NCBI GenBank assembly: GCA_016235455.1
Contig: JACRKZ010000077.1
Coordinates: 1 to 17,384 of the forward strand
Source: Armatimonadota bacterium
Lineage (GTDB): Bacteria > Armatimonadota > UBA10988
DNA: 17,384 nt
Direction: 5' to 3'
Below the pieces are notes generated by a model. It worked only from the letters and a program-made list of their open reading frames with translations, did no database searches and was not told where the DNA came from. The first letter of the stretch is position 1; the number at the start of each line of letters is the position of its first letter. Position numbers and translations under genes: made by a program. Below are positions 4,004 to 17,384 of the stretch, one piece after another.

Positions 4004-6613
4004 TCATTGAGCGCGGCCGGCGTTGGCGCAGGCTTCGGCGAGATGGCGCAGCAGTGTGACCGGCTGATAGGGCTTCTGCACGAAGCCCGAGAGTCCGGCC
4101 AGCGTGCCGCCGTCGCCGCCGATAGGCTGCGGGTAGCCGCTCGACATGACGACGGGCAGGCTCGGCCACAGGCGATGGACCTCGGCCAGCACCTCGGCGC
4201 CGCTCATGCCGGGCATGGTCAGGTCGAGCAGCACGACGTCCACCTCGCCCTCGCGCCGCCGCAGCTGCGACAGCGCCTCCACCCCGTCTTCGGCGATGAC
4301 CACCTCACAACCGGCCTGTTGCAGCACGGCTTGGGCCACCTGGGCCACATCGTGTTCGTCATCGACCACCAGCACCGTGCGCCCATGGCCCCAGTCGCCG
4401 ACCTCGGTCCAGGCGTCGGTCGGTCGGGCGGCGGCGTCGGTGCCGCGGGGCGCCACTGGCAGGAGCACCTCGACCGTGGTGCCGCGGCCGAGCTGGCTGG
4501 TGACCAGAATGGCCCCGCGGTGGGCGCGGACAATGCCCAGCACCGCGGCCAGCCCCAGGCCGCGACCGGTGAACTTGGTGGTGAAGAACGGGTCGAAGAT
4601 GCGGGCCACCGTGGCCTCATCCATGCCCGCGCCGTCGTCCTGCACCAGCAGCGACACGTACTGGCCTTCGGGCAGCCGGTCAAAGCTGTGCGCTCGCAGC
4701 AGTTCGTCGCGATCGACTGACTTGACCGACGTGCGCACCACAATGTGGCCCGCGCGCGCGCCCAGCGCGTCGGAGGCGTTGGTCAGCAGGTTCATGATGA
4801 CCTGCCTCAACTGCGTGGCGTCGCCCAGGATCAGCGGCAGATCGTCATCCGAGAAGACTTCCAGCAGCGCGAGCTTGCTGACGCTCACGTTGAGCAGATC
4901 GGCCATCTCGGTGACCAATTCGGCCAGATCCAGCGGGGTGACCAGGAACTGGCCCTTGCCCGCATAGGCCAGCAGTTGGGCGATCAGTTCCGCCGCGCGA
5001 CTGGAGGTGGTCTCGATGCGCTCCAGGTAGGTCAGGACCGGTGAGTCGGGTGGGAGATGGTGCAGCGCCAGGGCGGCGTTGCCCATGATGCCGGTCAGCA
5101 GGTTGTTGAAGTCGTGAGCGATGCCGCCAGCCAGGACGCCCAGACTCTCGAGCTTCTGCGCGTGGAGCATCTGCTGCTCAAACACGCGCCGCTCCTCCTC
5201 CGCGTCGCGCCGCCCGGTGACGTCACGGACCACGGCGCAGATGGCTTCGCGTCCGCCGTAGCTGATGCGGTTGGCCTTGACCTCGGCCTCCACCCAGCGT
5301 CCGTCGCGCCGGCCGAAGCGCACTTCGACCACATGGTCGCCCTCGGGCGCCACGGTGGTCAGGTAGCCACGGATCTGTTCGGCCGCATCGCCCAGCAGCG
5401 TGTCGAGCGTGACCCCGGCCAGCTCCTCGTGCTCGTAGCCCACGAGTTGCAGCAGCGCCGGATTGGCCTCCAGCAGCCCCATGCTGGCGGCATCGACCAG
5501 CAGGATGCCCTCGGAGGTCTGGGTGATCACCGAGCGATAGCGCAGGTCGCTCTCGGCGCGCTCGTTCTGCGAGCGGCGCACGGCGTCCAACATGCCATTG
5601 AGCGCGTCGGCCAACTGCGACAGCTCGTCCTGCCCGCCCACCGAAACCCGCGCGTTGAGGTCGCCGGTGGCGCCAATCTGCGCCACGTCGGCATTGAGCC
5701 GGGCGAGGCGCGAGAGTACGGCGCGCTCGATGAGCATGAGCATGACCAGCGAGAAGAACAGCACCGCGATGGCCACCATGAAGCCCAGGTAGGTGACCAC
5801 CTGATGCCCCTTGGCATTGATGGGCCGGCTCTGCACACCGCGCAGAATGACGGCGGGTGCTTGCTCGATGTCCTTGAGCAGGGCGTAGCCGGCGATGCGG
5901 TTCTCGCTGATTGGGCGCACCGCCAGTTGGTCGCGCTCGCTCATCATGCCCCAGGCCTGGCGGCAGTCGAGGGGCAGGCCGGGGTCGTCCAGTCGATGCA
6001 CCTCGAGCTGCAGCGAGGCAAAGTCGCCCCACTCGGCGGTCTTGGCGGCGTCGAGCTTGCGCGCGAAGAGGAGCACGCCACGGTCCGGCCCCCGTCCGTC
6101 GGTGCTGCGAATGGGCCGTGTGGCCACCAGCAGCGGATCGGGATCGGCGAGAATGAGCCCGCGCGTCAACAAGTAGTCTGCGGTGCCATGCTGCCCCAGC
6201 AGGCGTTTCAGGTAGGTCGTCAGCGGCTTGGGCACAGGCGCGGCGCGGTTGGTGAGCAGGTCGTGGCCGTGCTCATAGATGACCCGTCCGTTGAGGTCGA
6301 GGGCGACCACGGCGCTGATCTTGAGTGTGTTGAAAGTCTGCGGCACCAGGTTCCGTGGCGCAAAGTCCTTATCGCGCCCGGTCACCCAGGCCACGGATTC
6401 GTCCCAGTTGGCCCAGTCCGAGACGCTGGTGTCGATATCGAGCAGTTCGTTGAGGAAGACCACCGCCACCCGCGCCGCGTTCTGGCGCAGAACCTCGGTC
6501 TCCATCGCGATGAAGTCGCGCTGTACGGCGCCCCTAAAGCCCAGAAACAGCGATGTGATCAGCCCCGCGGAGGCGACAAACATGATGCGGAGTGTTTTGT
6601 TCCGAAGCGTCAT
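4004..6613 (-). CDS. Membrane hybrid sensor histidine kinase (TM-CHASE4-TM-HAMP-PAS-HisKA-HATPase-REC; CckA-like core), 869 aa
   Basis: Likely start ATG at 6613 (MTLRNKTLRIMF, then a TM helix). CHASE4 motif DWANWDE; HAMP (DELSQLADALNGML); PAS (EGILLVD...EANP...VVRDVT); H-box QKLESLGVLAGGIAHDFNNLL; N-box QVIMNLLTNA; G/F boxes DDGAGM, IFDPFFTTK, GRGLGL; receiver LVVDDE...LLDLTMPGMSG...FVQKPY. The ORF-track extension to 6904 overlaps the next gene and is not adopted. Confidence 0.92.
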   Translation of the reverse strand: MTLRNKTLRIMFVASAGLITSLFLGFRGAVQRDFIAMETEVLRQNAARVAVVFLNELLDIDTSVSDWANWDESVAWVTGRDKDFAPRNLVPQTFNTLKISAVVALDLNGRVIYEHGHDLLTNRAAPVPKPLTTYLKRLLGQHGTADYLLTRGLILADPDPLLVATRPIRSTDGRGPDRGVLLFARKLDAAKTAEWGDFASLQLEVHRLDDPGLPLDCRQAWGMMSERDQLAVRPISENRIAGYALLKDIEQAPAVILRGVQSRPINAKGHQVVTYLGFMVAIAVLFFSLVMLMLIERAVLSRLARLNADVAQIGATGDLNARVSVGGQDELSQLADALNGMLDAVRRSQNERAESDLRYRSVITQTSEGILLVDAASMGLLEANPALLQLVGYEHEELAGVTLDTLLGDAAEQIRGYLTTVAPEGDHVVEVRFGRRDGRWVEAEVKANRISYGGREAICAVVRDVTGRRDAEEERRVFEQQMLHAQKLESLGVLAGGIAHDFNNLLTGIMGNAALALHHLPPDSPVLTYLERIETTSSRAAELIAQLLAYAGKGQFLVTPLDLAELVTEMADLLNVSVSKLALLEVFSDDDLPLILGDATQLRQVIMNLLTNASDALGARAGHIVVRTSVKSVDRDELLRAHSFDRLPEGQYVSLLVQDDGAGMDEATVARIFDPFFTTKFTGRGLGLAAVLGIVRAHRGAILVTSQLGRGTTVEVLLPVAPRGTDAAARPTDAWTEVGDWGHGRTVLVVDDEHDVAQVAQAVLQQAGCEVVIAEDGVEALSQLRRREGEVDVVLLDLTMPGMSGAEVLAEVHRLWPSLPVVMSSGYPQPIGGDGGTLAGLSGFVQKPYQPVTLLRHLAEACANAGRAQ

Positions 6614-6639
6614 GGCAACGAAGGACCTCGGCTTGTGGG

Positions 6640-6702
6640 CATTGTACCCCGCGCGGCGGGCACCAAACAAGTTGGTGGCGTCCCCGGCGACCGGGTACAA
6701 TG
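6640..6702. promoter_or_regulatory. Putative back-to-back sigma70-type promoters formed by an inverted repeat, with a central palindrome (possible operator)
   Basis: CATTGTACCC (6640-6649) and GGGTACAATG (6693-6702) are a perfect 10-bp inverted repeat. Each arm gives a TACAAT -10-like hexamer pointing at one of the two divergent genes. Centre: CACCAA-N5-TTGGTG (6661-6677). TTGGTG lies 18 bp upstream of the + strand TACAAT; TTGTTT (6670-6665) lies 18 bp upstream of the - strand TACAAT. Confidence 0.6.
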
Positions 6703-6723
6703 TGACGCGAATGGAGTCTGCAC

Positions 6724-7209
6724 GTGATCCTGGCTCGACTCGACCAAGCCGATCGCTATGCCGCGCTGCACCCGGCTTTCGCCGACGCGCTGGCCTGGCT
6801 GCGAGCCACCGATCTGGCGGCCCTGCCTCTGGGGCGCGTGGGCTTGGGTCACGGCGTCGAGGCCATTGTGACCGACGCGCCAGGCCGCGGCCAGCAGCCA
6901 GCAAAGCTCGAAGTGCACCGGCAGACCATCGATATCCAGTTCTGCGTCTCGGGGAACGACATCATCGGCTGGCGACCGGCGGCCGACCTGCATCTGCGCG
7001 CCAGTGACTACGATCCCAGTGCCGATGTCGAGACGTTCTACGACGAAGCGCTCTGCTGGCAGCCGCTGCCCGAGGGCTGCCTGGCCATCTTGTGGCCCGA
7101 GGACGGTCATGCGCCTTTGGGCTGCCCTGCGGGCACGCCGCTGCTCAAAGTGGTGGTGAAGGTGCCCGTACGCGACGGGCACCCTCAGCCACTTCGGCTA
7201 CTTCGCTAG
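6724..7209 (+). CDS. YhcH/YjgK/YiaL (DUF386; NanQ/TabA-like) family protein
   Basis: MI...YAALHPAFADALAWL, LEVHRQTIDIQF, DYDPSADVETF, AILWPEDGHAP, LKVVVKV match the family pattern (E-x-H...IDIQ; P-x-D-x-H-x-P; K-x-V-x-K). GGAG at 6713-6716 precedes the GTG start. Confidence 0.9.
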   Translation: MILARLDQADRYAALHPAFADALAWLRATDLAALPLGRVGLGHGVEAIVTDAPGRGQQPAKLEVHRQTIDIQFCVSGNDIIGWRPAADLHLRASDYDPSADVETFYDEALCWQPLPEGCLAILWPEDGHAPLGCPAGTPLLKVVVKVPVRDGHPQPLRLLR

Positions 7210-9402
7210 CCTGACTAGCACACGCAGTCGCTTGGCTGTGTACGACCCCGCGTTGCCCGCGAACGTCCAGTCACGCGTGCGCTGCATGCCCGGCTTGGGG
7301 TCCAGGTTCGAGTTGCCGATGCCCAGGTCGGCGCCGGTGCCGGCGCGCCAGTTGTTGATGGCGAACACGGTCTGCTTGGCACCGTAGTTGCCCACCTGCA
7401 TCGAGCCGTAGCCCTCGATGGGGTCCATGTACTCGTCACCGAAGTCCCACACGCCAGCGTCGGCGTTGGGGATGGCGGCTTTGTTGGCCGGGCCGTAGTT
7501 GTGCGGCCAGAACTCGATGTTGCAGGTGCCCAGCGCCGTGCCGCCCGCGATGCCTTCGGCGTTGGAGATGATGTTGGCGTTGGCCACCTTGGTCTGGAAG
7601 ACCGCACCGCTGGCCGCCGTCGGCACGCCGATTTTGGCCAGGCTGTCGGTAAAGGCATCCATGGACACCCACACGTACTGCGTCGGCTTGCCCTGCGCCG
7701 TCAGCTCCAGGAAGTAGCCGATGCGGTCGAACTTGCCGGTGATCTTGGCGCGGTTGTCCACGTCGTAGACCAGATTGGCGCCGAGGTTGGCCAGGTCGAG
7801 ATCCAGCGCCAACTGGTAGTCCTTGGCTTCGGCCACACGCAGCGCCAGGTAATCGCGCTTGGGCACCTCGCCGGCCCGGAACGGCCGCGCGGGCAGGCCT
7901 TCCTTGTTGGCCAGGTTGGGCTCGGCCATCTTGCTCCAGGCATAGGTCACGGCCAGCGGCTTGGGCACCTTGGGGCAGCTGACCAGGACGCTGTCGCCGT
8001 CGATCACGGCCGTGGCGTCTTCGAAGTCCGTCTCCTCGCCGATCACCTGGAACCAGGTCAGCGGCTTGTCATCACGCGAGACCAGACCACCGCCGACGTT
8101 GTCGAAGCGCAGCCGGATCTTGTCGCCCTCGAGCGCCATGGACTTGAACACGGGGCCGTCGGCGACGACGTCCTTGCGGCCATAGGCACCCTTCAGCGCG
8201 AGCAGGGCGAACCGACGGCCCACTTCCTGCTTGTTGCGCGGATGGATGTCGTTGTACTCCGAGATGTCGTTGGTGACGACCATGCCCGTGTTGGGCAGCT
8301 TCAGTGCGGCGGCCTGCGCCTCCCAGAACTCAGCCATGACCTGCGGCGGCTCGGCACCGTAGTTGAACGGTGCGATCTGCACCCAGTAGAAGGGCATATC
8401 TGGGTTCTGGAAGACCGTGCGCCAGCCTCTGACCAGTGCTTCGGTCTTGGCGGTGTAGAGCTTGCCCTCACCGTGGTTCGACTCGCCCTGGTACCAGATG
8501 GCGCCCTTGAGCCCGAAGGGCACCAGGCCCTCGACCATGCCGTGGTACAGCGTGGTCGGCTGCTGCTGCGGCTGATCACCGCTGGCCAGCGACTGCAGTT
8601 CGGCGGGGAAGGCCGGCGCCGGCGCGATGGGCTTGCCCGCGGCCATGGCCGTGCGGGCGGCCTCGGTCCAGTCGGTCAGGGCCTTGATGTACGCGGTGAG
8701 CTTGGCCTGGTAGGCGGGGTTCTTGGGGTCTGCCGCCTGCACGCGAGCGGCGATGTCGGCCAACTCGGGCAGCAGCGAGAAGCTCTCGGGCGTGCACCAC
8801 GGCTCGATGCGCGTGCCGCCCCACGAGCTGTTGATCAGCCCGATGGGCACGCCGAGCTCCTTGCGCAAGGTGCGGGCCATGAAGTAACCACAGGCCGTGA
8901 ACGAGCCGGCCGTCTGCGGCGAGCAGACTTTCCAGTCGCCGCGGATGTCGGTGCCGCTGTAGCCCAGCGGCGCCTTGACCGCCTCGATGCTGCGGATCTG
9001 GTCATCTGTGGCGGCGGCGATGTCAGCCGCGGCGTTGAGGCAGCTCGCGACGCGCATCTCCATGTTCGACTGGCCCGAGCAGAGCCAGACGTCGCCGACC
9101 AGCACGTCGTCGAGAGCGACCTCGTTGTTGCCCTTGACCTTCAACTGCATTGGGCCGCCGGCCCTGCGCGCCGGCAGCTTGACGCTCCAGCGGCCGTCGG
9201 CACCGGTCTTGGCGGTGACCGCCGCGCCATCGCCCAGCGTCACGCTGACCGCCTCATCGGCCGCCGCCGTGCCCCAGACGGCGATCTCGCGGTCGCGCTG
9301 GAGCACCATATGGCTGCCGAACACCGCGGGCAGCTTGACATCGGCCCAGGCGCTGGTGGCCACCAGGGCCAGCAGCAGGGACCACCGCACGAACTTGCGC
9401 AT
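7198..9402 (-). CDS. Secreted sialate O-acetylesterase (SASA/DUF303, SGNH hydrolase) family protein with an extra C-terminal domain, 734 aa
   Basis: Signal peptide MRKFVRWSLLLALVATSAWA|DVKLP; AGGAG before ATG 9402. Family motifs VFGSHMVLQR, GDVWLCSGQSNM (catalytic Ser), PIGLINSSWGGTRIEPW, GAIWYQGESN, PFYWVQIAP, NDIHPRNKQEVG (catalytic His), NLANKEGLPARPFR. Confidence 0.9.
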   Translation of the reverse strand: MRKFVRWSLLLALVATSAWADVKLPAVFGSHMVLQRDREIAVWGTAAADEAVSVTLGDGAAVTAKTGADGRWSVKLPARRAGGPMQLKVKGNNEVALDDVLVGDVWLCSGQSNMEMRVASCLNAAADIAAATDDQIRSIEAVKAPLGYSGTDIRGDWKVCSPQTAGSFTACGYFMARTLRKELGVPIGLINSSWGGTRIEPWCTPESFSLLPELADIAARVQAADPKNPAYQAKLTAYIKALTDWTEAARTAMAAGKPIAPAPAFPAELQSLASGDQPQQQPTTLYHGMVEGLVPFGLKGAIWYQGESNHGEGKLYTAKTEALVRGWRTVFQNPDMPFYWVQIAPFNYGAEPPQVMAEFWEAQAAALKLPNTGMVVTNDISEYNDIHPRNKQEVGRRFALLALKGAYGRKDVVADGPVFKSMALEGDKIRLRFDNVGGGLVSRDDKPLTWFQVIGEETDFEDATAVIDGDSVLVSCPKVPKPLAVTYAWSKMAEPNLANKEGLPARPFRAGEVPKRDYLALRVAEAKDYQLALDLDLANLGANLVYDVDNRAKITGKFDRIGYFLELTAQGKPTQYVWVSMDAFTDSLAKIGVPTAASGAVFQTKVANANIISNAEGIAGGTALGTCNIEFWPHNYGPANKAAIPNADAGVWDFGDEYMDPIEGYGSMQVGNYGAKQTVFAINNWRAGTGADLGIGNSNLDPKPGMQRTRDWTFAGNAGSYTAKRLRVLVRLAK

Positions 9403-9503
9403 GAGCAAACACTCCTGTCCGCGGATTCACGGCGGTATTCGGAACTCCTCCTGGTAGGAGAGCGTCGGCCTTGGGCGAATGGCAGGCGCGGAGACATCAC
9501 GCG

Positions 9504-10583
9504 ATGGGTCAGTTTGATGGTCTAGCAGTCAACATGGGCAATCTGCACCGGCTCAGTGCCGCGCAGACGCGCTCGATCAGCGCCGAGCACTACACTGGCG
9601 CCAGGGGCGCCGGCGGCATGGCCACCGAGGGTACCGGCGCCGGCTGCGCCCGCGACCTCGGCCAGGGCTGGAAGATCTCGCCCTCGGTGCGCATCGAGGC
9701 GGGCGCCACCTTCGAGATGGCCGACATCGAAGGCCCCGGCGCCATCCAGCAGATGTGGCTGACGCCGACCGGCAACTGGCGCTTCTGCATCCTGCGCATC
9801 TACTGGGACGACCAGGAACAGCCGTCCGTGGAGTGCCCGGTGGGCGACTTCTTCGCCTGTGGCTGGGGGCAGTACGCCCAGGTCACCTCGTTGGCGGTCT
9901 GCGTCAATCCGGGCAGCGCCTTCAACTGCTACTGGCCGATGCCGTTCCGCAGCCGCTGCCGCATGACCATCACCAACATCGCGGGCGACGCGATGACGCT
10001 CTACTACCAGGTCAACTACGCGCTGGGCGAGGTGCGCGACGACTGCGCGTACTTCCACGCGCAGTGGCGCCGGGCCAATCCGCTGCCCTACCGCGAGGTC
10101 TACACCATCCTGGACGGCGTCAAGGGCCAGGGGCACTACGTGGGCACCTACATGGCCTGGCAGGTGAACAACACCGGCTGGTGGGGCGAGGGCGAAATCA
10201 AGTTCTTCATGGACGGCGACCAGTGGCCGACCATCTGCGGCACCGGCACCGAAGACTACTTCTGCGGCTCGTACAACTTCGAGAACCAGGCCACCAAGCA
10301 GTACCAGGAGTTTACCACGCCCTATGCCGGCATGCCACAGGTCATCCGCCCCGACGGTGTCTACCGCAGCCAGCAGCGCTTCGGGCTGTACCGCTGGCAC
10401 ATCACCGACCCGGTGCGCTTCTCGCAGGACCTGGCGGTGAACATCCAGGCGTTGGGCTGGCGCAGCGGCGGTCGCTACCTGCCGTTGCAGGACGACATTG
10501 CCAGTGTGGCATACTGGTACCAGACGCTGCCCACCGCGCCGTTCCCGCTGCTGGGCTCGCGGGACGACTTGGAGATCATCTAG
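9504..10583 (+). CDS. Glycoside hydrolase family 172 (DUF2961) protein, no signal peptide
   Basis: TRSISAEHYTGARGAGG, IEGPGAIQQMW, LRIYWDD...PSVECPVGDFF, AFNCYWPMPF, YFHAQWRR, GHYVGT, WWGEGE (~10179-10196), GTGTEDYF (~10239-10262), YRWHITDPVRF, DDIASVAYWYQ. The two glutamate motifs correspond to the GH172 catalytic residues. GGAG at 9490-9493 precedes ATG 9504. Confidence 0.9.
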   Translation: MGQFDGLAVNMGNLHRLSAAQTRSISAEHYTGARGAGGMATEGTGAGCARDLGQGWKISPSVRIEAGATFEMADIEGPGAIQQMWLTPTGNWRFCILRIYWDDQEQPSVECPVGDFFACGWGQYAQVTSLAVCVNPGSAFNCYWPMPFRSRCRMTITNIAGDAMTLYYQVNYALGEVRDDCAYFHAQWRRANPLPYREVYTILDGVKGQGHYVGTYMAWQVNNTGWWGEGEIKFFMDGDQWPTICGTGTEDYFCGSYNFENQATKQYQEFTTPYAGMPQVIRPDGVYRSQQRFGLYRWHITDPVRFSQDLAVNIQALGWRSGGRYLPLQDDIASVAYWYQTLPTAPFPLLGSRDDLEII

Positions 10584-10584
10584 G

Positions 10585-13500
10585 GTGGCGTATCTCCCTC
10601 GGCTCACAGTCCTGTTCGCGCTTCTGGCCGGGCTGTCGCTGGCTGACCAGCGACCGGCCTCGGCCCAGGAGCGCCTGGCGCCCGCCACGTGGTTCGACGA
10701 GGCGCGTGACCAAGTGCCCACGGCGCCGTGTGTCACGCGCCGCGTGGCGCCGGTGCTCGACGGCGACCTGCTGGACTGGGCCGACCACCCCAACCTGCCG
10801 CTCGGCCTGCCCTGCCAGGCGCGCTTCGACGCCAACTGGTTCGGCCGCGCCGACCTGAGCGCGCGCGTCTGGCTGGCTTGGGACCGCACCTACCTCTACG
10901 CCGCGGCGCAGATGACCGACGATCGGCCGGTGATCGCCCCCGGCGGCGACCCGCGGAAGGGCGACCTGCTCAGGCTGTTCGTCGGCGCCGATCCCGACGC
11001 GCCCGCGGCCGGCGCCAAGGCCATCTACCTGCTGCCACCGCGCAATGGCCAGCCGGCTGTGGCCGCCGATGGCGACACGCTCGATCCCATCCCCGGCGCC
11101 GACCTGGCCTGGAAGGCCGTTGACCGCGGCACTCGCCTGGAACTGCGCGTGCCCTGGGCGGCACTGCCCGGCGGCCCCCCGCGGGTTGATGACCAGCGCG
11201 CGCTGGCCATCGACCTGGCCGACTGGGATACCGACAAGACGCCAGACGGCTCGCTGGTCTTCCCGGCCTCGCTCGACCCACCCAAGCCGGTCAGCGCACC
11301 CGCGGCACCCGCGGGCTGGCAGCCACCCCGGGTCGAGCCGGCGCCGCGGCCGGCGCGCCTCGCGCCGTTGGCCATCACCGGCGCGCTCGGCGAGAGCGAA
11401 GCGCTGCTCTACCTGCCCGCGTGCCTGCCCGTCGGCTGCGAGAAGAGCTTCTACGGTGACAACGAGCAGGTCCGTATCTATGCGCTGAGCGGCCTGCCCC
11501 AAGGGGCGCTGGCGCGGCTCGACCTGTGGGCCACACGCTCGGCCGCACAGCCGTTCCTGCTCTCGCGCGACGAGAGTTGGAGCGAAGGCGCGGTCGGCGG
11601 GCAGACCTGGAGCTACCAAACCCCCGAGAAGTTCGACCAGTCGTTGCTCCTGGTGGCCGCCGTGCGCGACCCGTTCGACAGTCAGCGCGCTTACGGTCGC
11701 CTGACCTCCATGGGCGGCGTGTTCGACGAGTACCTGGCCAAGCTCAAGGCGCTACGCGAGCACATCATGGTCGTGGCCACGGAACCTGGCGCCGACGCGC
11801 GCCGGCGGCGCTACCTGGGCTCGGTGCTCATCAATCTCGAGGACCGGCAGCGGGCCAACGAGATGTGGCGCAGCTACCTCGCGCCGGACGACGTGGACAA
11901 ACTGCGGCGCGACGTCGCGGACATAGAGGCCGCGGCCGATGGCGCGCTGCGCGGCATCGACCCCTACGCGGGCAAGACCGGGCAGATCCTGCGCGGCTAC
12001 GTGTCCGACATCGACGACACGTTGCAGCACTACGCGGTAGGCATCCCCGACAACTGGGTGCCGGGGCAACGCCTGCCGCTGGTCATGTCGCTGCACGGTT
12101 ACGGTTCGGGCCAGTTCCAGGGCTCACCAGCGCCGCGCGAGGACGGCATGATCTACCTGTCGCCCTACGGCCGCGGCAACGGCGACTACAAGCTGTGGTG
12201 CGAGGAGGACCTGCGCACGGTCATCGCCGCCTGCCTGGAGGATTACGGCTGCGATCCCGACCGCGTCTACTGCACCGGTGGCTCCATGGGCGGCACCGGA
12301 TCCTGGCAGATCGCCACGATGTACCCTGACCTGTTCGCGGCCATCGGCCCGACCATGGGCAACGCCAACCACCGGGTGTGGGAGCAGGTGTGGGGCTGGG
12401 GCCAACGGGGCCAGACCTTCCTCACCCCGTTCCGCAACTGGCTGGAGTCCACGACCTCGGCCTTCACCTATGCGGAGAACCTGCGCAACGTGCCGGCTTG
12501 GTGCGTCCATGGCGATGCGGACGACATCGTCCCCGTCGACCATTCGCGCACCATGGTGCGCCGGCTGCGCGGTTTGGGTTATCAGATCAGCTATGAGGAG
12601 CAGTCGGGCGTTGGCCACGGCGGCTTCGCCTCGGGCACCGAGCAGCGCCAGCGCCGGGCCATGATGACCCAGGTGCGCGACCTGTGGCCCAGGCATGTCA
12701 GCTACAAGACCAGCTGGCCGCGCTATCAGGGTGCCTACTGGGTGCGCATCGAGCGCATGACCGCCCCGGGCAAGGACTCGGTCATCGACGCGAAGGTCAG
12801 CGGCCAGAAGGTCGAGGTGACCTGCTACAGCGTGTCGCGCTTCGCGCTGACTCTGAGCGACCGCCTGCTCGATACGCTGCGCCCGGTGACGGTCAGCGTC
12901 AACGGCATGACGGCCTTCAGCGGCCAGGCACCGGCGGACGGCCCGCTGCGCATCGGCATCGCCGATGGCCGCTGGCAGACGGTGCAGCCGCCGCGTGGGC
13001 TGGAGAAGAACGCGCGCGTCGGTGGCCCGGTGGAACATGCCTTCATGTCTCGCTTCCTGCTGGTCTATGGCACCACGGGCGACCGCCGCACCAACCTGGT
13101 GAACCGGCTCATGGCCGAGCAGTGCGCCGACAAGTGGAAGCGCTGGGGTCGCGGCCAGCCAGCGCGCCTCAAGGCCGACTTCGATGTCGACGACGACGAT
13201 GTCGCCGAGAGCAACCTGATCTGTTTCGGCTCGCCCGACAGCAACCGCATCACGGCGCGCGTCAATCCGAGCCTGCCGGTGCGCTTTGAGCCCGCCAGCG
13301 AGACGCTGCCGGCCGGTATCCGCGCCGGATCCGAGGTGTTCAGAGGCGACGATGTCGGCGTGAAGCTGTGTTACCCCAATCCGCTCAACCCCGACCGTTA
13401 CGTCTGCCTGTTCGGCGGCGCCACCTGGCTGGGCACGTGGGACATCAACGGCCGCTTCGGCAACTGGTTCGACTGGGGCGTGTTCGACGACCGCAACTGG

Positions 13501-16500
13501 TCCGACTTCAACATCTTCGACGCGCGCACCCAGACGCCTGAGACGCATCTGCTGACCGGCTACTTCGACAGCGACTGGAAGCTCGACGGCGGGCTCCTGC
13601 TGCGGGGCGACCCCAAGCTGCGCGCTCAGACCAAGCCGCGCCGCGCGCCGGACCCGCTGGCCGGGCCGACCAACGACGATGTCTGCTACCTGAGCGACCT
13701 GGTGCCGCTGCGCCAGCGCCAGGAAAAGGGCGTGCTCGGCTACGACCAGAGTTTTGGCGGCCGAGCCATCACACTGGGTCGCAGCACCTTCGCCCGCGGC
13801 CTGGGCATCCATCCCGAAGCGGAGATGGTCTACGACATTGGCGGACGCTTCGACCTGTTCGACGTCTGGGCTGGCATCGACCTGGAGGGCGCCGACAGCG
13901 TCAGTGGGGCGCGCGAGGCAGCCGAGCGGGTCGGCTTCGAGGTGTGGGGCGACGGCAAGCTGCTGGCCGACAGCGGCGAGATGCGCTGGAACACCAAGCC
14001 CAAGCACTTCCTCGTGCGCGTGACCGGCGTGAAGGAACTGCGCCTCAATGCCCGGGCAATGGACTTCCGCAAGTGGCTGTTCGGCTCCGCCGCTTGGGGT
14101 GAGGCCAAGCTCTCACGTACCAGGCTCGCCGCGGCCGAAGTCACGACGGCGGCACCGCGGGCCGTGCCCAGCCCCGACCGGCTGGCGCTGGACGGTCGTT
14201 GGCAACTCGACAGCTACGGCGTCGGCGCCGGCCTGGCCGGCGGCGCGCTGAGCAGTGCGGCGGCCGAACGGACCATGGAAGTGCCGGGCTCCGTGGCCGC
14301 GTCCTGCGCGGCGCTCGGCGAGATCCCCGCACTGGACAGCGACGACGGGCTCAGAGCCGCCGCTGGCTTGACCGATCGTGAATGGTGGCTGCGCCGCCGC
14401 GTAGACATACCCGCCGCGTGGGCCGGTCGAGCCCTGCGGCTCCGCGTCAGCGGGGCCACGGTCTCGGCTGACCTGTGGTGCAACGGCACCAGCGTGGGCC
14501 GCACCGACGGCGCGCCTGAAGGTTGCTCGGAGTTCGACCTCACGGACTTGGCCCGGCCCGGCCAGCCCAATGAACTCGCCGTGCGCCTGACCGCCGGCCC
14601 GGCCGAGTGGAGTGGGGTGACCTGGTGGAGCGCGCCTGGCCGCGACAAGGTGCTGGCGCCGCGCGTGGCCTGGGGCGACGACGGTGGCGGAACCTGCCTG
14701 CCGCTGGGCATCCACGGCGAGGTGACGCTGGAAGCCGTCGGGCAGACGACGCTGGGCGCCCCGCGCGTCTCGGCGCGGCTGCTCGACGCAGTGCCGGCCG
14801 GCGGCGAGGCCACGGCGCGCGGCATGGTGACCGTGACGCTGCCAATCACCTCGGCGGACAAAGAGCCGCATGGCGTGCCGCTACGCGTGTGGGTCCGGCG
14901 ACCTGGCGAGCCGCCGGTCGAGGTGACGTGCAACGTCCTGGTCGACCCAGTGGCCAATGAGCCGGCGCGGTTCAGCTTCGAGATGCCCGCGGTGCTGCCC
15001 TGGTGGCCGACGGGCCTGGGCACTCAAAGCACCTACCGGCTCACCGTCGCGGTCGACGGTGCACTGCCGGCCGACGACGTGCGTGAGACGACCTTCGCCT
15101 TCCGCCAGGTGAGTGTCGCCGGGGAGCAGTTGCTGGTCAACGGCCAGCCGTGGTCGCCGCGCATGGTGCGCTGGCGGCCCATCGACCGCTTTCTGCGGCC
15201 CGCCCGGCAGCGTACCGAGCAACTGCTGCGCGCCGCGCTCGACGCCGGGTTCAACACGCTGCGAGTGGAGTCAGGCGCGCTCTGGGCCTCGCGCGAACTG
15301 CTGGACCGCTGTGACCAGCTTGGCCTGATGGTGCTGGCTGAGTTGCCGCTCTCGGGCGACATCGGCCCCCTGGGCGACGACCTGGCCCGAGCCGCGGCCG
15401 GCGGGTGGGCTGGCCTGCTGCGCAACCATGCCTGCCGCCTGGGCTATGTGTTGGGCACCGATGTGGGCGACAGCGGCGACTGCGCGTTCCGCCTGGCGGC
15501 GGCCGGCCGGCGACTGGAGGACCTCGATCCCGACGGTCTGGTGGTCGCGCCGACCCGGTCGGCGAGTGGCCTCGCGGCCTGGAACTGGTCGACGCTCGGC
15601 GTGGCCCGGCGCGGGCTTACGGCCCATGTCTGCCAGGTGGCTTTGGCCACGGCGCCGCCCGCCGACGGCTCGGCATTGGGCTCGGCGCTGGCCGACCCGG
15701 CAGCCGTCGAGCTATGGCCGCTGAGCGATGCCTGGCGGCGCCGCGGCGGCTCGGACGATGATGTACGCGCGGCGTTGACGCGGCTCGGCCCGGCCGATGA
15801 CATCGGGGATCTGGCGCAGCGACTAGGCTGGTGGCAGGCGGAATCGGCGCGGCGCCAACTGACCGGCTGGACCCGCGGCATGCTCAGCGTGGACACGCTC
15901 AACGAGAGCTGGCCGCGGGTGGGCGGTGCGCTGATCGACTTCCAGGGCGCGCCCAGGGCCGCGCTCGACCTGCTGCGCACGCGGCTACGGGCCCGCGCGG
16001 CATGGTCTGAGCCATCGGCCGAGGCGCTGTCCATTGGCGAGACGCTCAGCACTCGGCTGCATGCGGACGAGGCTGTGCCCGCCGAGGCCACGGTGCGTTG
16101 CCGGCTCCAGGGCCTCGACGGCAAGGTGTGGGCCGAGTGCAGCTACGCCGCCGCCGAACTGGACGCGGCGCGCCTTGTCTGGCAGCCCGCGTCGGGCACG
16201 CCGTCGGGAGCCTACCTCCTGGTGACCGAAGTGCTCGGCGGCGATGCCCCGGCCGATGTCGCACCGCTCACGCTGCGCGCCGACCCCGCCATCGCCAGGC
16301 TGGCCGTAGCGACCGTCGGCACCGAACTGCCGCCCGTGCCCGGTTTGGTGTCTGACGCGCGCGCGGCCAAAGTGTGGTGGGCCGGCGGATCGCTGGCCGA
16401 CCAGGGCGCGGAGATGGAGCGCGCGGTGCAGGCCGGCGCCGGTGTGGTCTTCGACGGCTACCCGTCATTGCCTTACGGCAGTGAGCTGGACAAGGCCCTG

Positions 16501-17208
16501 CCGGCCAGGCGCAGCTACAGCAGCGACCAGCGTGTGGCCGGTGTCTCACGGCCCGAAGCGCTCCTGCCCGATCATCCTGCTCTGCTGGGTCTCGGCGAGC
16601 TGCCGGAAGGTCAGCCGCCTGGCTGGTACGAAGTGGACTCCCGCGCCGACACACTCCTGGGCTTCGGTTCAGGGCGGCCGCTGCTGGTCGAAGGGCAGTA
16701 CGGCGGCGGTCGTGTGCTGATGCTGCTGGCCTCCGAGCCGTACCGTCGCCGGCTGGAGGCGTGGCCGGGCTGGCCGCGGTTCGTCACGGGCCTGCTGGCT
16801 TACGCGGCCAAGCTGCCGCACAGCCAGGCGCGCGCGCTGCTGGATACCGCCATCGTGAGGCCGCTGGGCAGCCTGCCGTCCGTGGCGCGGGCCAACGTGT
16901 CGGTCAACGGCGGCGGCGGCAACCTGAGCGTCGAAGCGGGCAGCAGCGCGACCCGCGAACTGCGTATCAGGAACGAGGGGCCGGCCCTGATGCCGCTGGT
17001 CCGGTTGGAGTTGAACGGCCTGCCCGCCGAGCTGGCCGCCACCCTCAGTACCAACGGCTTCGCCCTACGGCCCGGTGAGACGCGGGCGGTGACTATCACG
17101 GTCGAGGCACGTCGTCGCGTCAAGGCGAGCGGCACGCTGAGCGTGACCGTCGACGGCTGGGGCGTCAACCCGCAGCGCATCGACCTGCGCGTCGAGTGCG
17201 GCGGCTGA
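10585..17208 (+). CDS. Giant (~2207 aa) secreted multidomain protein: CBM9-like, alpha/beta-hydrolase (esterase/S9-like), NPCBM/NEW2, degenerate GH2 beta-mannosidase-like region, class I GATase-like insert, Ig-like domains
   Basis: GTG at 10585 lies 1 nt after the GH172 stop, with GGAG at 10571-10574, then a signal peptide (MAYLPRLTVLFALLAGLSLA). CBM9-like PVLDGDLLDW...WDRTYLY...DD...ELRVPW (~10740-11235). Hydrolase PLVMSLHG, TGGSMGG (Ser 12283), HGDADD (Asp ~12520), GVGHG (His 12616). NPCBM YLSDL...GLGIHP...FEVWGDGK...AWGEAKL (~13681-14112). GH2-like LDGRWQL...VPG...NELAVRL...GIHGEVTL, WWPTGLG.Q..Y, FNTLRV, CDQLGLMV, RNH, LNESWP (~14185-15975). GATase-like ~16300-16815. Terminal Ig-like NGFALRPGETRAVTI. 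Confidence 0.85.
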   Translation: MAYLPRLTVLFALLAGLSLADQRPASAQERLAPATWFDEARDQVPTAPCVTRRVAPVLDGDLLDWADHPNLPLGLPCQARFDANWFGRADLSARVWLAWDRTYLYAAAQMTDDRPVIAPGGDPRKGDLLRLFVGADPDAPAAGAKAIYLLPPRNGQPAVAADGDTLDPIPGADLAWKAVDRGTRLELRVPWAALPGGPPRVDDQRALAIDLADWDTDKTPDGSLVFPASLDPPKPVSAPAAPAGWQPPRVEPAPRPARLAPLAITGALGESEALLYLPACLPVGCEKSFYGDNEQVRIYALSGLPQGALARLDLWATRSAAQPFLLSRDESWSEGAVGGQTWSYQTPEKFDQSLLLVAAVRDPFDSQRAYGRLTSMGGVFDEYLAKLKALREHIMVVATEPGADARRRRYLGSVLINLEDRQRANEMWRSYLAPDDVDKLRRDVADIEAAADGALRGIDPYAGKTGQILRGYVSDIDDTLQHYAVGIPDNWVPGQRLPLVMSLHGYGSGQFQGSPAPREDGMIYLSPYGRGNGDYKLWCEEDLRTVIAACLEDYGCDPDRVYCTGGSMGGTGSWQIATMYPDLFAAIGPTMGNANHRVWEQVWGWGQRGQTFLTPFRNWLESTTSAFTYAENLRNVPAWCVHGDADDIVPVDHSRTMVRRLRGLGYQISYEEQSGVGHGGFASGTEQRQRRAMMTQVRDLWPRHVSYKTSWPRYQGAYWVRIERMTAPGKDSVIDAKVSGQKVEVTCYSVSRFALTLSDRLLDTLRPVTVSVNGMTAFSGQAPADGPLRIGIADGRWQTVQPPRGLEKNARVGGPVEHAFMSRFLLVYGTTGDRRTNLVNRLMAEQCADKWKRWGRGQPARLKADFDVDDDDVAESNLICFGSPDSNRITARVNPSLPVRFEPASETLPAGIRAGSEVFRGDDVGVKLCYPNPLNPDRYVCLFGGATWLGTWDINGRFGNWFDWGVFDDRNWSDFNIFDARTQTPETHLLTGYFDSDWKLDGGLLLRGDPKLRAQTKPRRAPDPLAGPTNDDVCYLSDLVPLRQRQEKGVLGYDQSFGGRAITLGRSTFARGLGIHPEAEMVYDIGGRFDLFDVWAGIDLEGADSVSGAREAAERVGFEVWGDGKLLADSGEMRWNTKPKHFLVRVTGVKELRLNARAMDFRKWLFGSAAWGEAKLSRTRLAAAEVTTAAPRAVPSPDRLALDGRWQLDSYGVGAGLAGGALSSAAAERTMEVPGSVAASCAALGEIPALDSDDGLRAAAGLTDREWWLRRRVDIPAAWAGRALRLRVSGATVSADLWCNGTSVGRTDGAPEGCSEFDLTDLARPGQPNELAVRLTAGPAEWSGVTWWSAPGRDKVLAPRVAWGDDGGGTCLPLGIHGEVTLEAVGQTTLGAPRVSARLLDAVPAGGEATARGMVTVTLPITSADKEPHGVPLRVWVRRPGEPPVEVTCNVLVDPVANEPARFSFEMPAVLPWWPTGLGTQSTYRLTVAVDGALPADDVRETTFAFRQVSVAGEQLLVNGQPWSPRMVRWRPIDRFLRPARQRTEQLLRAALDAGFNTLRVESGALWASRELLDRCDQLGLMVLAELPLSGDIGPLGDDLARAAAGGWAGLLRNHACRLGYVLGTDVGDSGDCAFRLAAAGRRLEDLDPDGLVVAPTRSASGLAAWNWSTLGVARRGLTAHVCQVALATAPPADGSALGSALADPAAVELWPLSDAWRRRGGSDDDVRAALTRLGPADDIGDLAQRLGWWQAESARRQLTGWTRGMLSVDTLNESWPRVGGALIDFQGAPRAALDLLRTRLRARAAWSEPSAEALSIGETLSTRLHADEAVPAEATVRCRLQGLDGKVWAECSYAAAELDAARLVWQPASGTPSGAYLLVTEVLGGDAPADVAPLTLRADPAIARLAVATVGTELPPVPGLVSDARAAKVWWAGGSLADQGAEMERAVQAGAGVVFDGYPSLPYGSELDKALPARRSYSSDQRVAGVSRPEALLPDHPALLGLGELPEGQPPGWYEVDSRADTLLGFGSGRPLLVEGQYGGGRVLMLLASEPYRRRLEAWPGWPRFVTGLLAYAAKLPHSQARALLDTAIVRPLGSLPSVARANVSVNGGGGNLSVEAGSSATRELRIRNEGPALMPLVRLELNGLPAELAATLSTNGFALRPGETRAVTITVEARRRVKASGTLSVTVDGWGVNPQRIDLRVECGG

Positions 17209-17220
17209 GCGCGGCCGCTA

Positions 17221-17384
17221 GAGCCTGTCATGCACTTGCCATCGCAGCCAGCACGGGCGCGGCCCGTGACAGCATCAACAGGCTGAAGGCCACGAAGTGG
17301 AGCCCGGCCAACGTGGAGGCCAGCCGTTCGTAGTCACGCGCCAGGCGCCGGAAGCGGGCCAGCCAGGCGAAGCTGCGCTCGACC
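17221..17384 (-). mobile_element. Right end of an IS5-family insertion sequence (partial)
   Basis: The transposase stop (17228-17230) sits inside a probable terminal inverted repeat starting GAGCCTGTCATGCAC at 17221, preceded by CTA (forming CTAG), typical of IS5-subgroup ends and targets. The partner repeat is outside the window, so the boundary is inferred. Confidence 0.75.
17228..17383 (-). CDS. IS5-family DDE transposase, C-terminal 51 aa (5' part lies outside the window)
   Basis: Manual translation of the minus strand: [51 protein letters not shown]. This is the characteristic C-terminus of IS5-family (IS1031/IS427-type) transposases, with the catalytic Glu in VER. Absent from the ORF track. 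Confidence 0.9.

Follow-up and report, generated by a model that had tools for sequence, protein, structure and literature searches.

What does a secreted protein of 2207 residues do if only one of its many domains resembles a working enzyme? The question is raised by a single gene on contig JACRKZ010000077.1 (assembly GCA_016235455.1), whose 17,384 bp, taken whole, form the window analyzed here; the contig belongs to a metagenome-assembled genome (MAG) of an Armatimonadota bacterium (6.5 Mb, 93% complete, 185 contigs). We think it probable that the protein is a Sec-exported, multi-modular serine esterase, most likely one that deacylates a complex glycan, and that a catalytically dead body of the glycoside hydrolase family 2 (GH2) type serves it as a scaffold, binder, or oligomerizer. 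Specifically, we infer esterase rather than peptidase chemistry, a glycan as the substrate, and the roles of the GH2 body and of the glutamine amidotransferase (GATase)-like domain that it contains. The gene is laid out as follows.

10585 to 17208, plus strand: the whole gene, 2207 codons plus stop, with a GTG start at 10585 and the stop at 17206 to 17208

The predicted esterase and its partner domains

The part of the chain that carries the argument lies between residues 456 and 1176 and comprises a hydrolase, a two-domain segment that we call MID, and a carbohydrate-binding module (CBM):

11950 to 12684, plus strand: serine esterase domain, an alpha/beta-hydrolase of the LC-Est1/TmEstA type, residues 456-700, placed by profile against the PDB and by Pfam
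12283 to 12285, plus strand: Ser567 (TCC), predicted catalytic, in GGSMGG, aligning with the nucleophile elbow of LC-Est1C
12520 to 12522, plus strand: Asp646, predicted catalytic, in HGDADD, aligned to VHGDNDKTV of LC-Est1C
12616 to 12618, plus strand: His678, predicted catalytic, in GVGHGG, aligned to GGDH of LC-Est1C
12361 to 12474, plus strand: family-specific Trp-rich insertion in the esterase (VWEQVWGWG...), about residues 593-630, from the alignment to LC-Est1C
12685 to 13659, plus strand: MID, a beta-sandwich (about residues 701-805) and an alpha/beta domain (about 806-1025, with NLICFGSPDSN and GRFGNWFDWG), from an AlphaFold2 (AF2) model
13684 to 14112, plus strand: NPCBM/NEW2 module, residues 1034-1176, Pfam PF08305

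When a profile of 38 family sequences across the hydrolase was searched against the PDB, the two best of 101 matches were both esterases, namely, LC-Est1C (3wyd, 9.5e-44) and T. maritima EstA (3doh, 2.3e-30). The same profile matched 8daj, an esterase of the poly(3-hydroxybutyrate) (PHB)-depolymerase family, at an E value of 6.7e-16, and feruloyl esterases, including those of carbohydrate esterase family 1 (CE1) type (1jjf and 8jh8), at about 1e-9 to 1e-12. The triad of Ser567, Asp646, and His678 does not vary (39 of 39 relatives), suggesting that catalysis is what selection has preserved. Further, about 35 Trp-rich residues (VWExxWGWG...) are inserted in the family relative to LC-Est1C, the positions 143-150 of which bridge profile positions 138-176; W599 is kept in 38 of the 39 relatives and W603 in 37. 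By triad and closest relationship, the hydrolase belongs, on sequence grounds, to the LC-Est1/TmEstA group. Its chemistry is most likely that of a carboxylesterase, because the nearest solved relatives are esterases, models of polyhydroxyalkanoate (PHA) depolymerases score below their cut-offs, and no S9 propeller accompanies it. Homology, for its part, gives the esterase no substrate.

One alternative is that the hydrolase is an S9-type serine peptidase or acyl-aminoacyl hydrolase, with the carbohydrate modules aiming it at glycoproteins or the cell wall. Peptidase_S9 (PF00326) is the best Pfam family over residues 530-692 (E value of 6.4e-16, 58.9 bits against a cut-off of 22.6), the catalytic domains of DPP4 and FAP match the profile at about 1e-10 across its whole length, and there are relatives that bear the name "prolyl oligopeptidase family serine peptidase". 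Those names are automatic, however, the two esterases match the profile far better than the DPP4-type peptidases do, and neither an S9 beta-propeller nor an S9 N-terminal domain appears among the Pfam matches at E <= 1. A peptidase is, in our estimation, unlikely, and we continue with the reading of the domain as an esterase.

Immediately behind the esterase, MID has no Pfam match, and its sequence profile found nothing in the PDB at E <= 10. An AF2 model built on a 38-sequence alignment (predicted local distance difference test [pLDDT] of 91.4) resolves it into a beta-sandwich followed by an alpha/beta domain, for which Foldseek returned nothing at E <= 0.001. With VIA, the best match of the alpha/beta domain is 9fsa, the cell-wall anchoring domain of an S-layer protein from Methanococcus voltae (Z of 11.1, root-mean-square deviation of 2.9, 125 residues aligned). 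The N-terminal domains of several glycosidase families also appear (GH115 with Z of 9.8, 8.7, 8.7, and 7.0, GH67 with 7.6, and GH84 and GH20 with 5-7), and the sandwich and alpha/beta domain together match BcsB with a Z of 9.3. Because Z values of 7-8 are common, only the top few of these fold matches are informative.

Nine MID residues (N932, R957, N960, D963, W964, D974, D979, E986, and W998) are the same in all 39 relatives, and the sole low-confidence loop of the MID model, 962-967, holds four family-invariant residues (F962, D963, W964, and G965). A model of the complex between the esterase slice and the MID slice places this loop in an interface. Its ipSAE is 0.91 (0.92, 0.91, and 0.91 in the individual runs), compared with 0.00 for the best of three controls; at least 88% of the contacts are common to the runs, and the partner pLDDT is at least 89. 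As a rough yardstick, in which own alignments were used, that mark is reached by 116 of 157 solved complexes and by 2 of 215 mismatched pairs. The predicted interface joins esterase residues 596 and 608-637 (the family insertion) to MID loop 961-967. Contact as such is unsurprising, because both partners are domains of one chain; nevertheless, the model supports a compact, co-evolving unit of esterase and MID. Further, because several of the nine invariant residues fall in the predicted esterase interface, we rate them as likely to serve packing rather than catalysis in a second active site. Here, an initial annotation, made from the DNA letters alone, had noted "a further alpha/beta region". 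An alpha/beta domain does lie there, but it does not stand alone, being joined to a beta-sandwich; it is like the N-terminal domain of GH115 and not a second hydrolase, and in the model it is packed on the esterase.

The MID fold also bears on a second alternative, in which the protein is mainly a structural or adhesive surface protein, with MID as a wall anchor, the dead GH2 body and immunoglobulin (Ig)-like domains as a stalk, and the esterase as a secondary element. In its favor are the archaeal S-layer anchoring domain at the top of the MID fold matches, weak Pfam S_layer_C matches in two relatives (2.2e-3 and 9.2e-4), and the cadherin-like, Big_9, and PKD domains of other proteins with the same cassette. 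Against this, MID is predicted to be packed on the esterase with its invariant loop inside the interface, the catalytic triad is invariant, and a shared fold shows no function; hence, we give a primarily structural role little credence.

The third member of the cassette is securely identified by Pfam (PF08305, E value of 1.1e-26, with 94 bits where the cut-off is 23.9, over positions 3-136 of the 137 in the model), and the profile of this region matches 7js4. NPCBM is a galactose-binding module, and we take NPCBM/NEW2 to be CAZy family CBM51. Compared with the 14 homologues recovered by protein search, the esterase has a mean identity of 0.58, the MID alpha/beta domain 0.59, and NPCBM 0.55; strands 4-8 of the GH2 TIM barrel reach only 0.29, the GH2 Ig domains 0.23-0.24, and the GATase-like domain 0.31. 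Judged by this conservation, esterase, MID, and NPCBM are the conserved functional core.

This core is not confined to giant proteins. A MID profile matched 5574 cluster representatives at E <= 0.001, of which 3286 remain at 1e-10 and 1181 at 1e-30. Among 21 of 150 listed MID matches, which were picked for unusual lengths and scanned for partners, an S9/esterase domain lies upstream of MID in 11 (E <= 1e-6) and NPCBM is present in 8; the other partners comprise GDSL, DUF7133, HEAT, F5/8-type-C, FG-GAP, CBM9, cadherin/Big_9, PKD, and AhpC-TSA domains. Two proteins with the cassette are themselves giants (P0121 with 2792 residues and P0126 with 3063) that combine a GDSL lipase, DUF7133, and HEAT with esterase-MID-NPCBM and a terminal F5/8-type-C domain. 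Separately, a 1480-residue protein of another locus (L034:6928-11370, plus strand) places a GH5-like domain ahead of esterase-MID-NPCBM; the best PDB match of that domain is 9gmj, a "DUF5060 domain-containing protein" (1.9e-72), and beta-mannanases match weakly (1e-9 to 6e-4). A glycan context for the esterase is favored by the NPCBM match, by these fusions of the cassette to GH5-like, F5/8-type-C, GDSL, and CBM9 domains, and by the carbohydrate genes found here and there beside relatives.

The appended modules likewise bear on a third alternative, that of a polyester depolymerase acting on PHA, cutin, or a similar polymer, with the extra modules anchoring it to particles or cell surfaces. The hydrolase does match two NCBIfam models, scl-PHA depolymerase type 1 catalytic domain (NF050058, 1.4e-16, 60.8 bits) and esterase_phb (TIGR01840, 2.4e-7, 30.4 bits), and some relatives are named poly(3-hydroxybutyrate) depolymerase. 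Both scores, however, fall far below their cut-offs (150 and 107.85, respectively), and the modules are of carbohydrate-binding types rather than PHA substrate-binding domains. A polyester depolymerase is likewise improbable, and a glycan esterase remains the reading that we prefer.

The GH2-type body and its insertion

More than 1000 residues of the chain follow the cassette, and they fold, by profile and model, into a GH2 architecture that is interrupted once:

14161 to 16284, plus strand: GH2 beta-mannosidase-type body, domains 1-4 (sugar-binding, Ig, degenerate TIM barrel, Ig), residues 1193-1900, from the family profile
15460 to 15462, plus strand: Asp1626, in the alignment column where active GH2 enzymes have their acid/base Glu (NE motif, after strand 4)
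15640 to 15642, plus strand: Ala1686, in the alignment column where active GH2 enzymes have their nucleophile Glu (after strand 7)
16294 to 16818, plus strand: GATase1-like (ThuA/DUF1355-like) alpha/beta domain, residues 1904-2078, between GH2 domains 4 and 5, from the AF2 fold
16882 to 17205, plus strand: C-terminal Ig-like domain, which is GH2 domain 5, residues 2100-2207, from Pfam and the fold

The family profile of the GH2 body matches the beta-mannosidases 5n6u (E value of 5.7e-69, positions 1193-1787) and 6byg (3.3e-57, positions about 1172-1882), as well as BtMan2A (2je8, 2.6e-50) and CsxA (2vzs, 2.2e-48). Within Pfam, GH2_N, GH2, and Ig_mannosidase are weak in the protein and clear in its homologues, and Glyco_hydro_2_C has no match in the protein. 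At the catalytic positions, the body departs from active enzymes. The acid/base Glu of WCGNNE in 6byg falls on Asp1626 (YVLGTD), a column that, among 18 family sequences, holds Glu in 2, Asp in 6, Ala in 5, Ser in 4, and Gly in 1. The nucleophile falls on Ala1686 in the registers of 5n6u and L003 and on Gln1684 in that of 6byg; no Asp or Glu occurs anywhere in the strand, HVCQVALATAPP (residues 1681-1692), and the same 18 sequences show Glu in 1, Ala in 3, Thr in 4, Val in 3, Leu in 2, Asn in 1, Lys in 1, and a gap in 3. L003, a genuine GH2 of the same genome, retains both Glu in the same alignment, and 6byg has its Glu at the acid/base column. Because D1626 and A1686 stand in place of the two catalytic Glu, at columns that the family does not conserve, we consider the GH2 body a catalytically dead pseudo-enzyme, as far as sequence can tell. 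The body of about 1000 residues has nonetheless stayed open in more than 12 lineages, every lineage examined, and it therefore appears to be under selection for something other than catalysis.

A fourth alternative would make the protein a bifunctional esterase-glycosidase, in which non-canonical residues keep the GH2 part working, for example, Asp1626 as acid/base together with a nucleophile that comes from another site or from the substrate itself. All five domains of the GH2 fold are indeed kept, as its profile score attests, Asp or Glu stands at the acid/base column in 8 of the 18 family members, and the module has remained open over more than 1000 codons in many lineages. Yet Glu stands at the nucleophile column in a single member, and the corresponding strand here offers no carboxylate. 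Moreover, the half of the barrel that would bear the catalytic residues is among the least conserved parts, alignment A1 has no invariant column between residues 1589 and 1787, and, taken singly, the sequence stops aligning to GH2 structures after barrel strand 3. A second, glycosidic activity is therefore improbable, and the reading of an esterase attached to an inactive GH2 body stands.

The last 378 residues of the chain clarify how that body ends. An AF2 model of residues 1830-2207 (17 sequences, pLDDT of 88.8) contains, at model residues 75-249, a fold that VIA matches to STM3548 (2gk3, Z of 15.7, root-mean-square deviation of 3.1, 169 residues aligned), to a GATase1-like protein of Planctomyces (3rht, Z of 14.8), to a ThuA-like protein (1t0b, Z of 13.4), and to the corresponding domain of GH42 enzymes (Z of 9.4-11.1, with 5xb7 at 11.1). 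Foldseek agrees, with 2gk3 at 4.5e-7, and homologues give weak PF07090 and PF24157 matches. Residues 1904-2078 contain no Cys, and the best Cys column is occupied in 4 of 17 sequences; without a Cys or a conserved Cys column, the domain is not an amidotransferase. Behind it, model residues 271-378 form an Ig-like sandwich, Pfam Ig_mannosidase matches this last domain at 1.7e-4 (with Ig_GlcNase at 4e-12 to 4e-17 in homologues), and CsxA (2vzo) aligns across model residues 1-372 with a Z of 9.4. Since the last Ig domain is GH2 domain 5, the GATase-like domain interrupts the GH2 body rather than following it. The trimer interface of GH42-type enzymes is formed by the GATase1-like fold, which mediates oligomerization there.

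Much of the domain order proposed in the initial annotation holds at this level of detail. The NPCBM/NEW2 module, the beta-mannosidase-type GH2 architecture, and the GATase-like domain were each recovered by Pfam, profile, or fold, and the serine-hydrolase triad is intact as described. Its view that this triad is the only clearly active center is supported by the loss of both Glu in the GH2 body and by the lack of Cys in the GATase-like domain, and well over half of the chain lacks a recognizable active center, in keeping with its view that this much serves substrate capture or scaffolding. Where it had a GATase-like and then an Ig-like domain following a complete GH2 unit, both domains are present, but they are not appended: the latter is part of the GH2 body, and the former is inserted into it.

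Two observations concern GH2 bodies elsewhere. A word-indexed search for stand-alone relatives, a limited method, gave one weak match, an 849-residue beta-mannosidase (E value of 2.5e-7, 15% coverage). In Planctomycetota, at L022:2669-6199, L024:6261-8855, and L025:6087-8792, a large protein with GH2 Ig domains (865-1177 residues) directly precedes the 1800-residue form of the family described below; these upstream proteins are too distant for a reliable alignment at the catalytic motifs.

From these elements, the following picture of a probable glycan esterase can be drawn. The catalytic unit would be the LC-Est1/TmEstA-type alpha/beta-hydrolase with its Ser567-Asp646-His678 triad, tightly packed on MID and forming, with NPCBM, a cassette common to thousands of proteins; it would remove acyl groups, for example, acetyl groups, from a complex glycan. 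Additions made in this lineage, namely, a CBM9-like module at the N terminus and, at the C terminus, a complete beta-mannosidase-type GH2 body that lost its catalytic Glu, probably serve to locate the enzyme on a polymer or to bring several copies together as oligomers. The dead body could act as a scaffold, a spacer, a glycan-recognition surface, or an oligomerization platform, and the non-catalytic GATase1-like domain inserted in it might, by analogy with GH42, take part in oligomerization.

A more specific version of this picture can be drawn, but we give it a low probability. It treats esterase-MID as a very large, unrecognized carbohydrate esterase family in which MID is obligatory, and it proposes that the Armatimonadota/Planctomycetota branch disarmed a beta-mannosidase and retained it as a lectin-like module for recognition or oligomerization, which would steer the esterase to acylated, galactose-decorated mannose glycans, such as acetylated galacto(gluco)mannan. 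The thread to acylated mannans is weak and speculative, and it runs through the beta-mannosidase type of the GH2 body, the galactose binding associated with NPCBM, and the faint beta-mannanase matches of the GH5-like domain noted above.

Reading frame, relatives, and genomic surroundings

Frame +1 runs from 10585 to 17208 with no internal stop across 2207 codons. The GTG start, which is shared by the database copy of the protein and by all 14 homologues, has a GGAG 11 nt upstream; an alternative TTG at 10498 would add 29 residues and overlap the upstream gene. Four sequencing runs bear on the assembly, and none lists an insertion or deletion in the region of the open reading frame (ORF). Run X1 gives a contig of 6538 nt over 10685-17222 (9 base differences) and run X2 one of 6835 nt over 10400-17222 (11 base differences), both with zero gaps; the two runs stem from one study, possibly the one that yielded the MAG. 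In the two runs of a second study, short contigs with 95-100% identity cover 28 of 30 and 25 of 30 bins. The uninterrupted 6.6-kb ORF of the initial annotation is borne out, as are its motifs, which lie where it placed them (linker at 232-257, GGSMGG at 565-570, HGDADD at 642-647, GVGHGG at 675-680, and NLICFGSPDSN at 877-887), with its Ser codon being that of Ser567. It had also raised two ways in which the ORF could mislead, as a chimera of the assembly or as separate genes recently fused by stop loss; neither is what we find, given the gap-free run-level contigs and the same domain order in homologues. Hence, although one relative (L012, also G069) reads as two ORFs of 964 and 1257 residues that meet at residues 1058/1061, an artefactual origin of the ORF is effectively excluded by run-level contigs that cross it entirely without a gap, by the fused order in 11 complete ORFs of other assemblies, and by the occurrence of an 1800-residue form in two phyla.

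The exceptional relative is found on JACPDV010000130.1, a groundwater Armatimonadetes MAG, and is split around locus positions 2745-2900, by a frameshift or genuinely. Since the fused state is ancestral, this single split looks like a frameshift.

With the query itself counted, a protein search yielded 15 proteins, which are 1816-2500 residues long and show 35-51% identity; 7 of the 14 homologues cover 97-100% of the query. Scanning species-representative genomes gave 44 loci, among them 11 complete ORFs of 2140-2452 residues from other MAGs, in which the parts follow one another as they do here. A sample of 301 Armatimonadota genomes contains 40 with a match at E <= 1e-60, and about 13 of the 301 carry the giant form (11 open frames of 2191-2477 residues, 1 cut by a contig end, and 1 split), counts that represent a floor, coming from a stricter first look. 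All 5 genomes sampled from the window's own family have the giant form, as do all 4 from another, and the architecture extends to several further Armatimonadota families and, without the CBM9 end, to Planctomycetota. Three size classes emerge: esterase-MID-NPCBM proteins of about 780-1030 residues in Planctomycetota, Lentisphaerota, and Armatimonadota; proteins of about 1800 residues, with the GH2 body added, in Planctomycetota and Brocadiia; and proteins of 2140-2450 residues, with the CBM9 end also added, in Armatimonadota. The same genome additionally holds two shorter cassette paralogues, L002 (G000:C150:15592-17265, minus strand), which matches residues 450-1020 and has one in-frame TGA, and L004 (G000:C117:37614-38972, plus strand), which matches residues 466-943.

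In literature on Armatimonadota, NPCBM esterases, inactive GH2, and LC-Est1, no characterized protein with this architecture was found, and the main text of the Fervidibacter sacchari paper mentions no NPCBM, CBM51, CBM9, or carbohydrate esterase. The names attached to relatives in their sources are automatic only, of the prolyl oligopeptidase or poly(3-hydroxybutyrate) depolymerase kind. The initial claim that the domain combination matches no characterized protein is thereby sustained, with the qualification that the architecture is far from unique, as it recurs throughout the window's own family, in other families, and in Planctomycetota.

The N-terminal part of the protein is composed of the following:

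10585 to 10668, plus strand: predicted Sec signal peptide, residues 1-28, read from the sequence (R6, hydrophobic core LTVLFALLAGLSL, ASA-Q cleavage motif, no lipobox Cys)
10831 to 11241, plus strand: CBM9-like (PF06452) beta-sandwich module, residues 83-219, from Pfam
11278 to 11355, plus strand: Pro-rich linker PPKPVSAPAAPAGWQPPRVEPAPRPA, residues 232-257, from the sequence
11410 to 11949, plus strand: region without a family match, residues 276-455, a beta-rich part and then a helical part

The signal peptide suggests that the protein is secreted via Sec. For the CBM9-like module, which the initial annotation had proposed, CBM9_1 scores slightly below its cut-off of 23.4 bits here (22.9 bits on the slice, with an E value of 8.6e-5, and 17.8 bits on the whole protein) and clearly above it in aligned homologues (L021 with 56.2 bits, 5.5e-15, and L020 with 31.6 bits, 1.9e-7). 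Region 276-455 has no Pfam family (noise only, E value of 0.22) and no usable ESM Atlas match, and BLAST recovered it in just 5 of 38 related ORFs. Its last 75 or so residues are part of the widely conserved core, and the matches of short-form relatives start at residues 379-472.

Upstream of the giant gene lies a likely partner in expression:

9471 to 10583, plus strand: DUF2961 gene, 370 residues, Pfam E value of 5.1e-98

Its TAG ends 1 nt before the GTG of the giant gene, and because of this spacing the two are probably co-transcribed and translationally coupled. We take DUF2961 to be CAZy family GH172. Divergently placed at 7198-9408 (minus strand) is a 736-residue protein in which a SASA domain (sialate O-acetylesterase-like) is found only at residues 285-401 (E value of 1.1e-18), the remainder having no assignment; it is a putative second carbohydrate esterase. 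A look-up of RNA data sets listed none for this stretch. A 966-residue hybrid histidine kinase (CHASE4-HAMP-PAS-HisKA-HATPase-REC; 4004-6904, minus strand) sits between the carbohydrate genes and those for acetate kinase and alanine racemase; a DUF3604-like gene also lies in the window. At the contig end, 17228-17383 (minus strand) encodes the C-terminal tail of a DDE transposase (PF13586, E value of 7.3e-7, 30 bits against a cut-off of 29.2), depth at 17157-17384 is 3-4 times that of the gene (156 versus about 35 in run X2), and several other contigs diverge at 17193-17273; an insertion sequence copy probably broke the assembly there.

Around relatives, carbohydrate genes are scattered (sulfatases, Gfo/Idh/MocA oxidoreductases, polysaccharide deacetylases, NPCBM-melibiase, and DUF6785/6784), and in Thermosaccharophagus loci a GDSL protein with CBM9, and CE15, adjoin relatives. 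A tblastn search with six window neighbors across the 44 related loci found no DUF2961 or SASA near relatives, its only matches being two of the histidine kinase.

Several of our results pull away from a glycan esterase, and they should be read together. First, none of the window's neighbor genes recurs beside relatives, and Pfam on 120 neighbor ORFs from 35 loci gave no conserved gene partner; with no recurring neighbors, the context points to no substrate. Second, the Pfam family at the top of the hydrolase matches is a peptidase family, and in PMC12103068, TmEstA and LC-Est1 are assigned to the ESTHER group Abhydrolase_5, with "undefined" activity and no CAZy family, a group that the same paper places beside the CE1-related family Esterase_phb. 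Third, the esterase triad lies outside the predicted MID interface, so that a composite active site is unsupported by the model. Fourth, Asp1626 could in principle serve as a general acid, and the GH2 body must, on its retained frame, have some role. Finally, 8 read joints are listed, each with a short side of just 20-22 letters; joints with such short sides usually stem from other organisms or repeats, according to the warning of the tool, and we treat them as noise on account of that shortness and because the long contigs contradict them.

Significance and comparison with known systems

If the glycan esterase reading is right, the protein offers a natural case of a glycoside hydrolase body kept over more than 1000 residues after the loss of catalysis, which could show what purpose a pseudo-glycosidase serves, whether binding, spacing, or oligomerization. 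Its cassette is widespread in hard-to-culture, polysaccharide-degrading phyla (Armatimonadota, Planctomycetota, and Lentisphaerota), and a single defined substrate would annotate thousands of genes now labeled "prolyl oligopeptidase family" or "NPCBM domain-containing". Esterases that deacylate hemicellulose are, further, useful accessory enzymes in enzyme discovery. Were the esterase an ordinary short-chain acetylesterase, the finding would shrink to a curious domain arrangement.

LC-Est1 (3WYD) and TmEstA (3DOH) carry an extra N-terminal domain. They share with the giant protein a homologous catalytic domain in which the GxSMGG elbow and the placement of Asp and His agree; this family differs in its Trp-rich insertion, absent from LC-Est1C, in the MID that always follows the esterase, and, here, in a chain of 2207 residues. 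MID in turn has a fold like those of the N-terminal domains of GH115, GH67, GH84, and GH20, of BcsB, and of 9FSA, with no sequence similarity detectable in PDB or Pfam searches; unlike the glycosidase N-domains, it partners an esterase and not a (beta/alpha)8 glycosidase.

The GH2 enzymes DtMan (5N6U), XacMan2A (6BYG), BtMan2A (2JE8), and CsxA (2VZS) have the five-domain architecture of the giant protein, which, in contrast to them, lacks both catalytic Glu, has a GATase1-like domain inserted, and stands behind an esterase cassette. In GH42-type enzymes (5XB7, 3TTS, and 4UCF), a TIM barrel is followed by a GATase1-like domain and a beta-sandwich, as it is here (the VIA scores given above, and Foldseek at 4e-7 to 2e-5); those are active trimeric enzymes, whereas here the barrel is of the GH2 type and predicted to be dead.

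The logic of joining esterase, CBM, and glycoside hydrolase is also seen in CkXyn10C-GE15A (a xylanase with CE15 and CBM9/CBM22) and in the acetyl-feruloyl esterase fusions of Bacteroidetes, as described in PMC8280721 and PMC7110780. In those enzymes, both catalytic modules are active and belong to curated CAZy families, whereas here the glycoside hydrolase is predicted to be dead and the esterase group lies outside CAZy. Closest to the fate of the GH2 body is GH26B of Segatella copri, which, according to PMC12704710, has lost its catalytic Glu residues, is secreted, and is proposed to be a binding protein; it is of a different glycoside hydrolase family and stands alone, without an esterase fusion.

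All of the folds, and multi-modular esterase/glycoside hydrolase/CBM enzymes in general, are already known. What is new, as read from the sequences, is the fusion of a conserved, apparently dead GH2 body to a predicted live esterase and the insertion of a GATase1-like domain in a GH2 architecture. New as well is the recognition of the esterase-MID cassette as a very large family, whose MID has no Pfam model and among which no characterized member was found.

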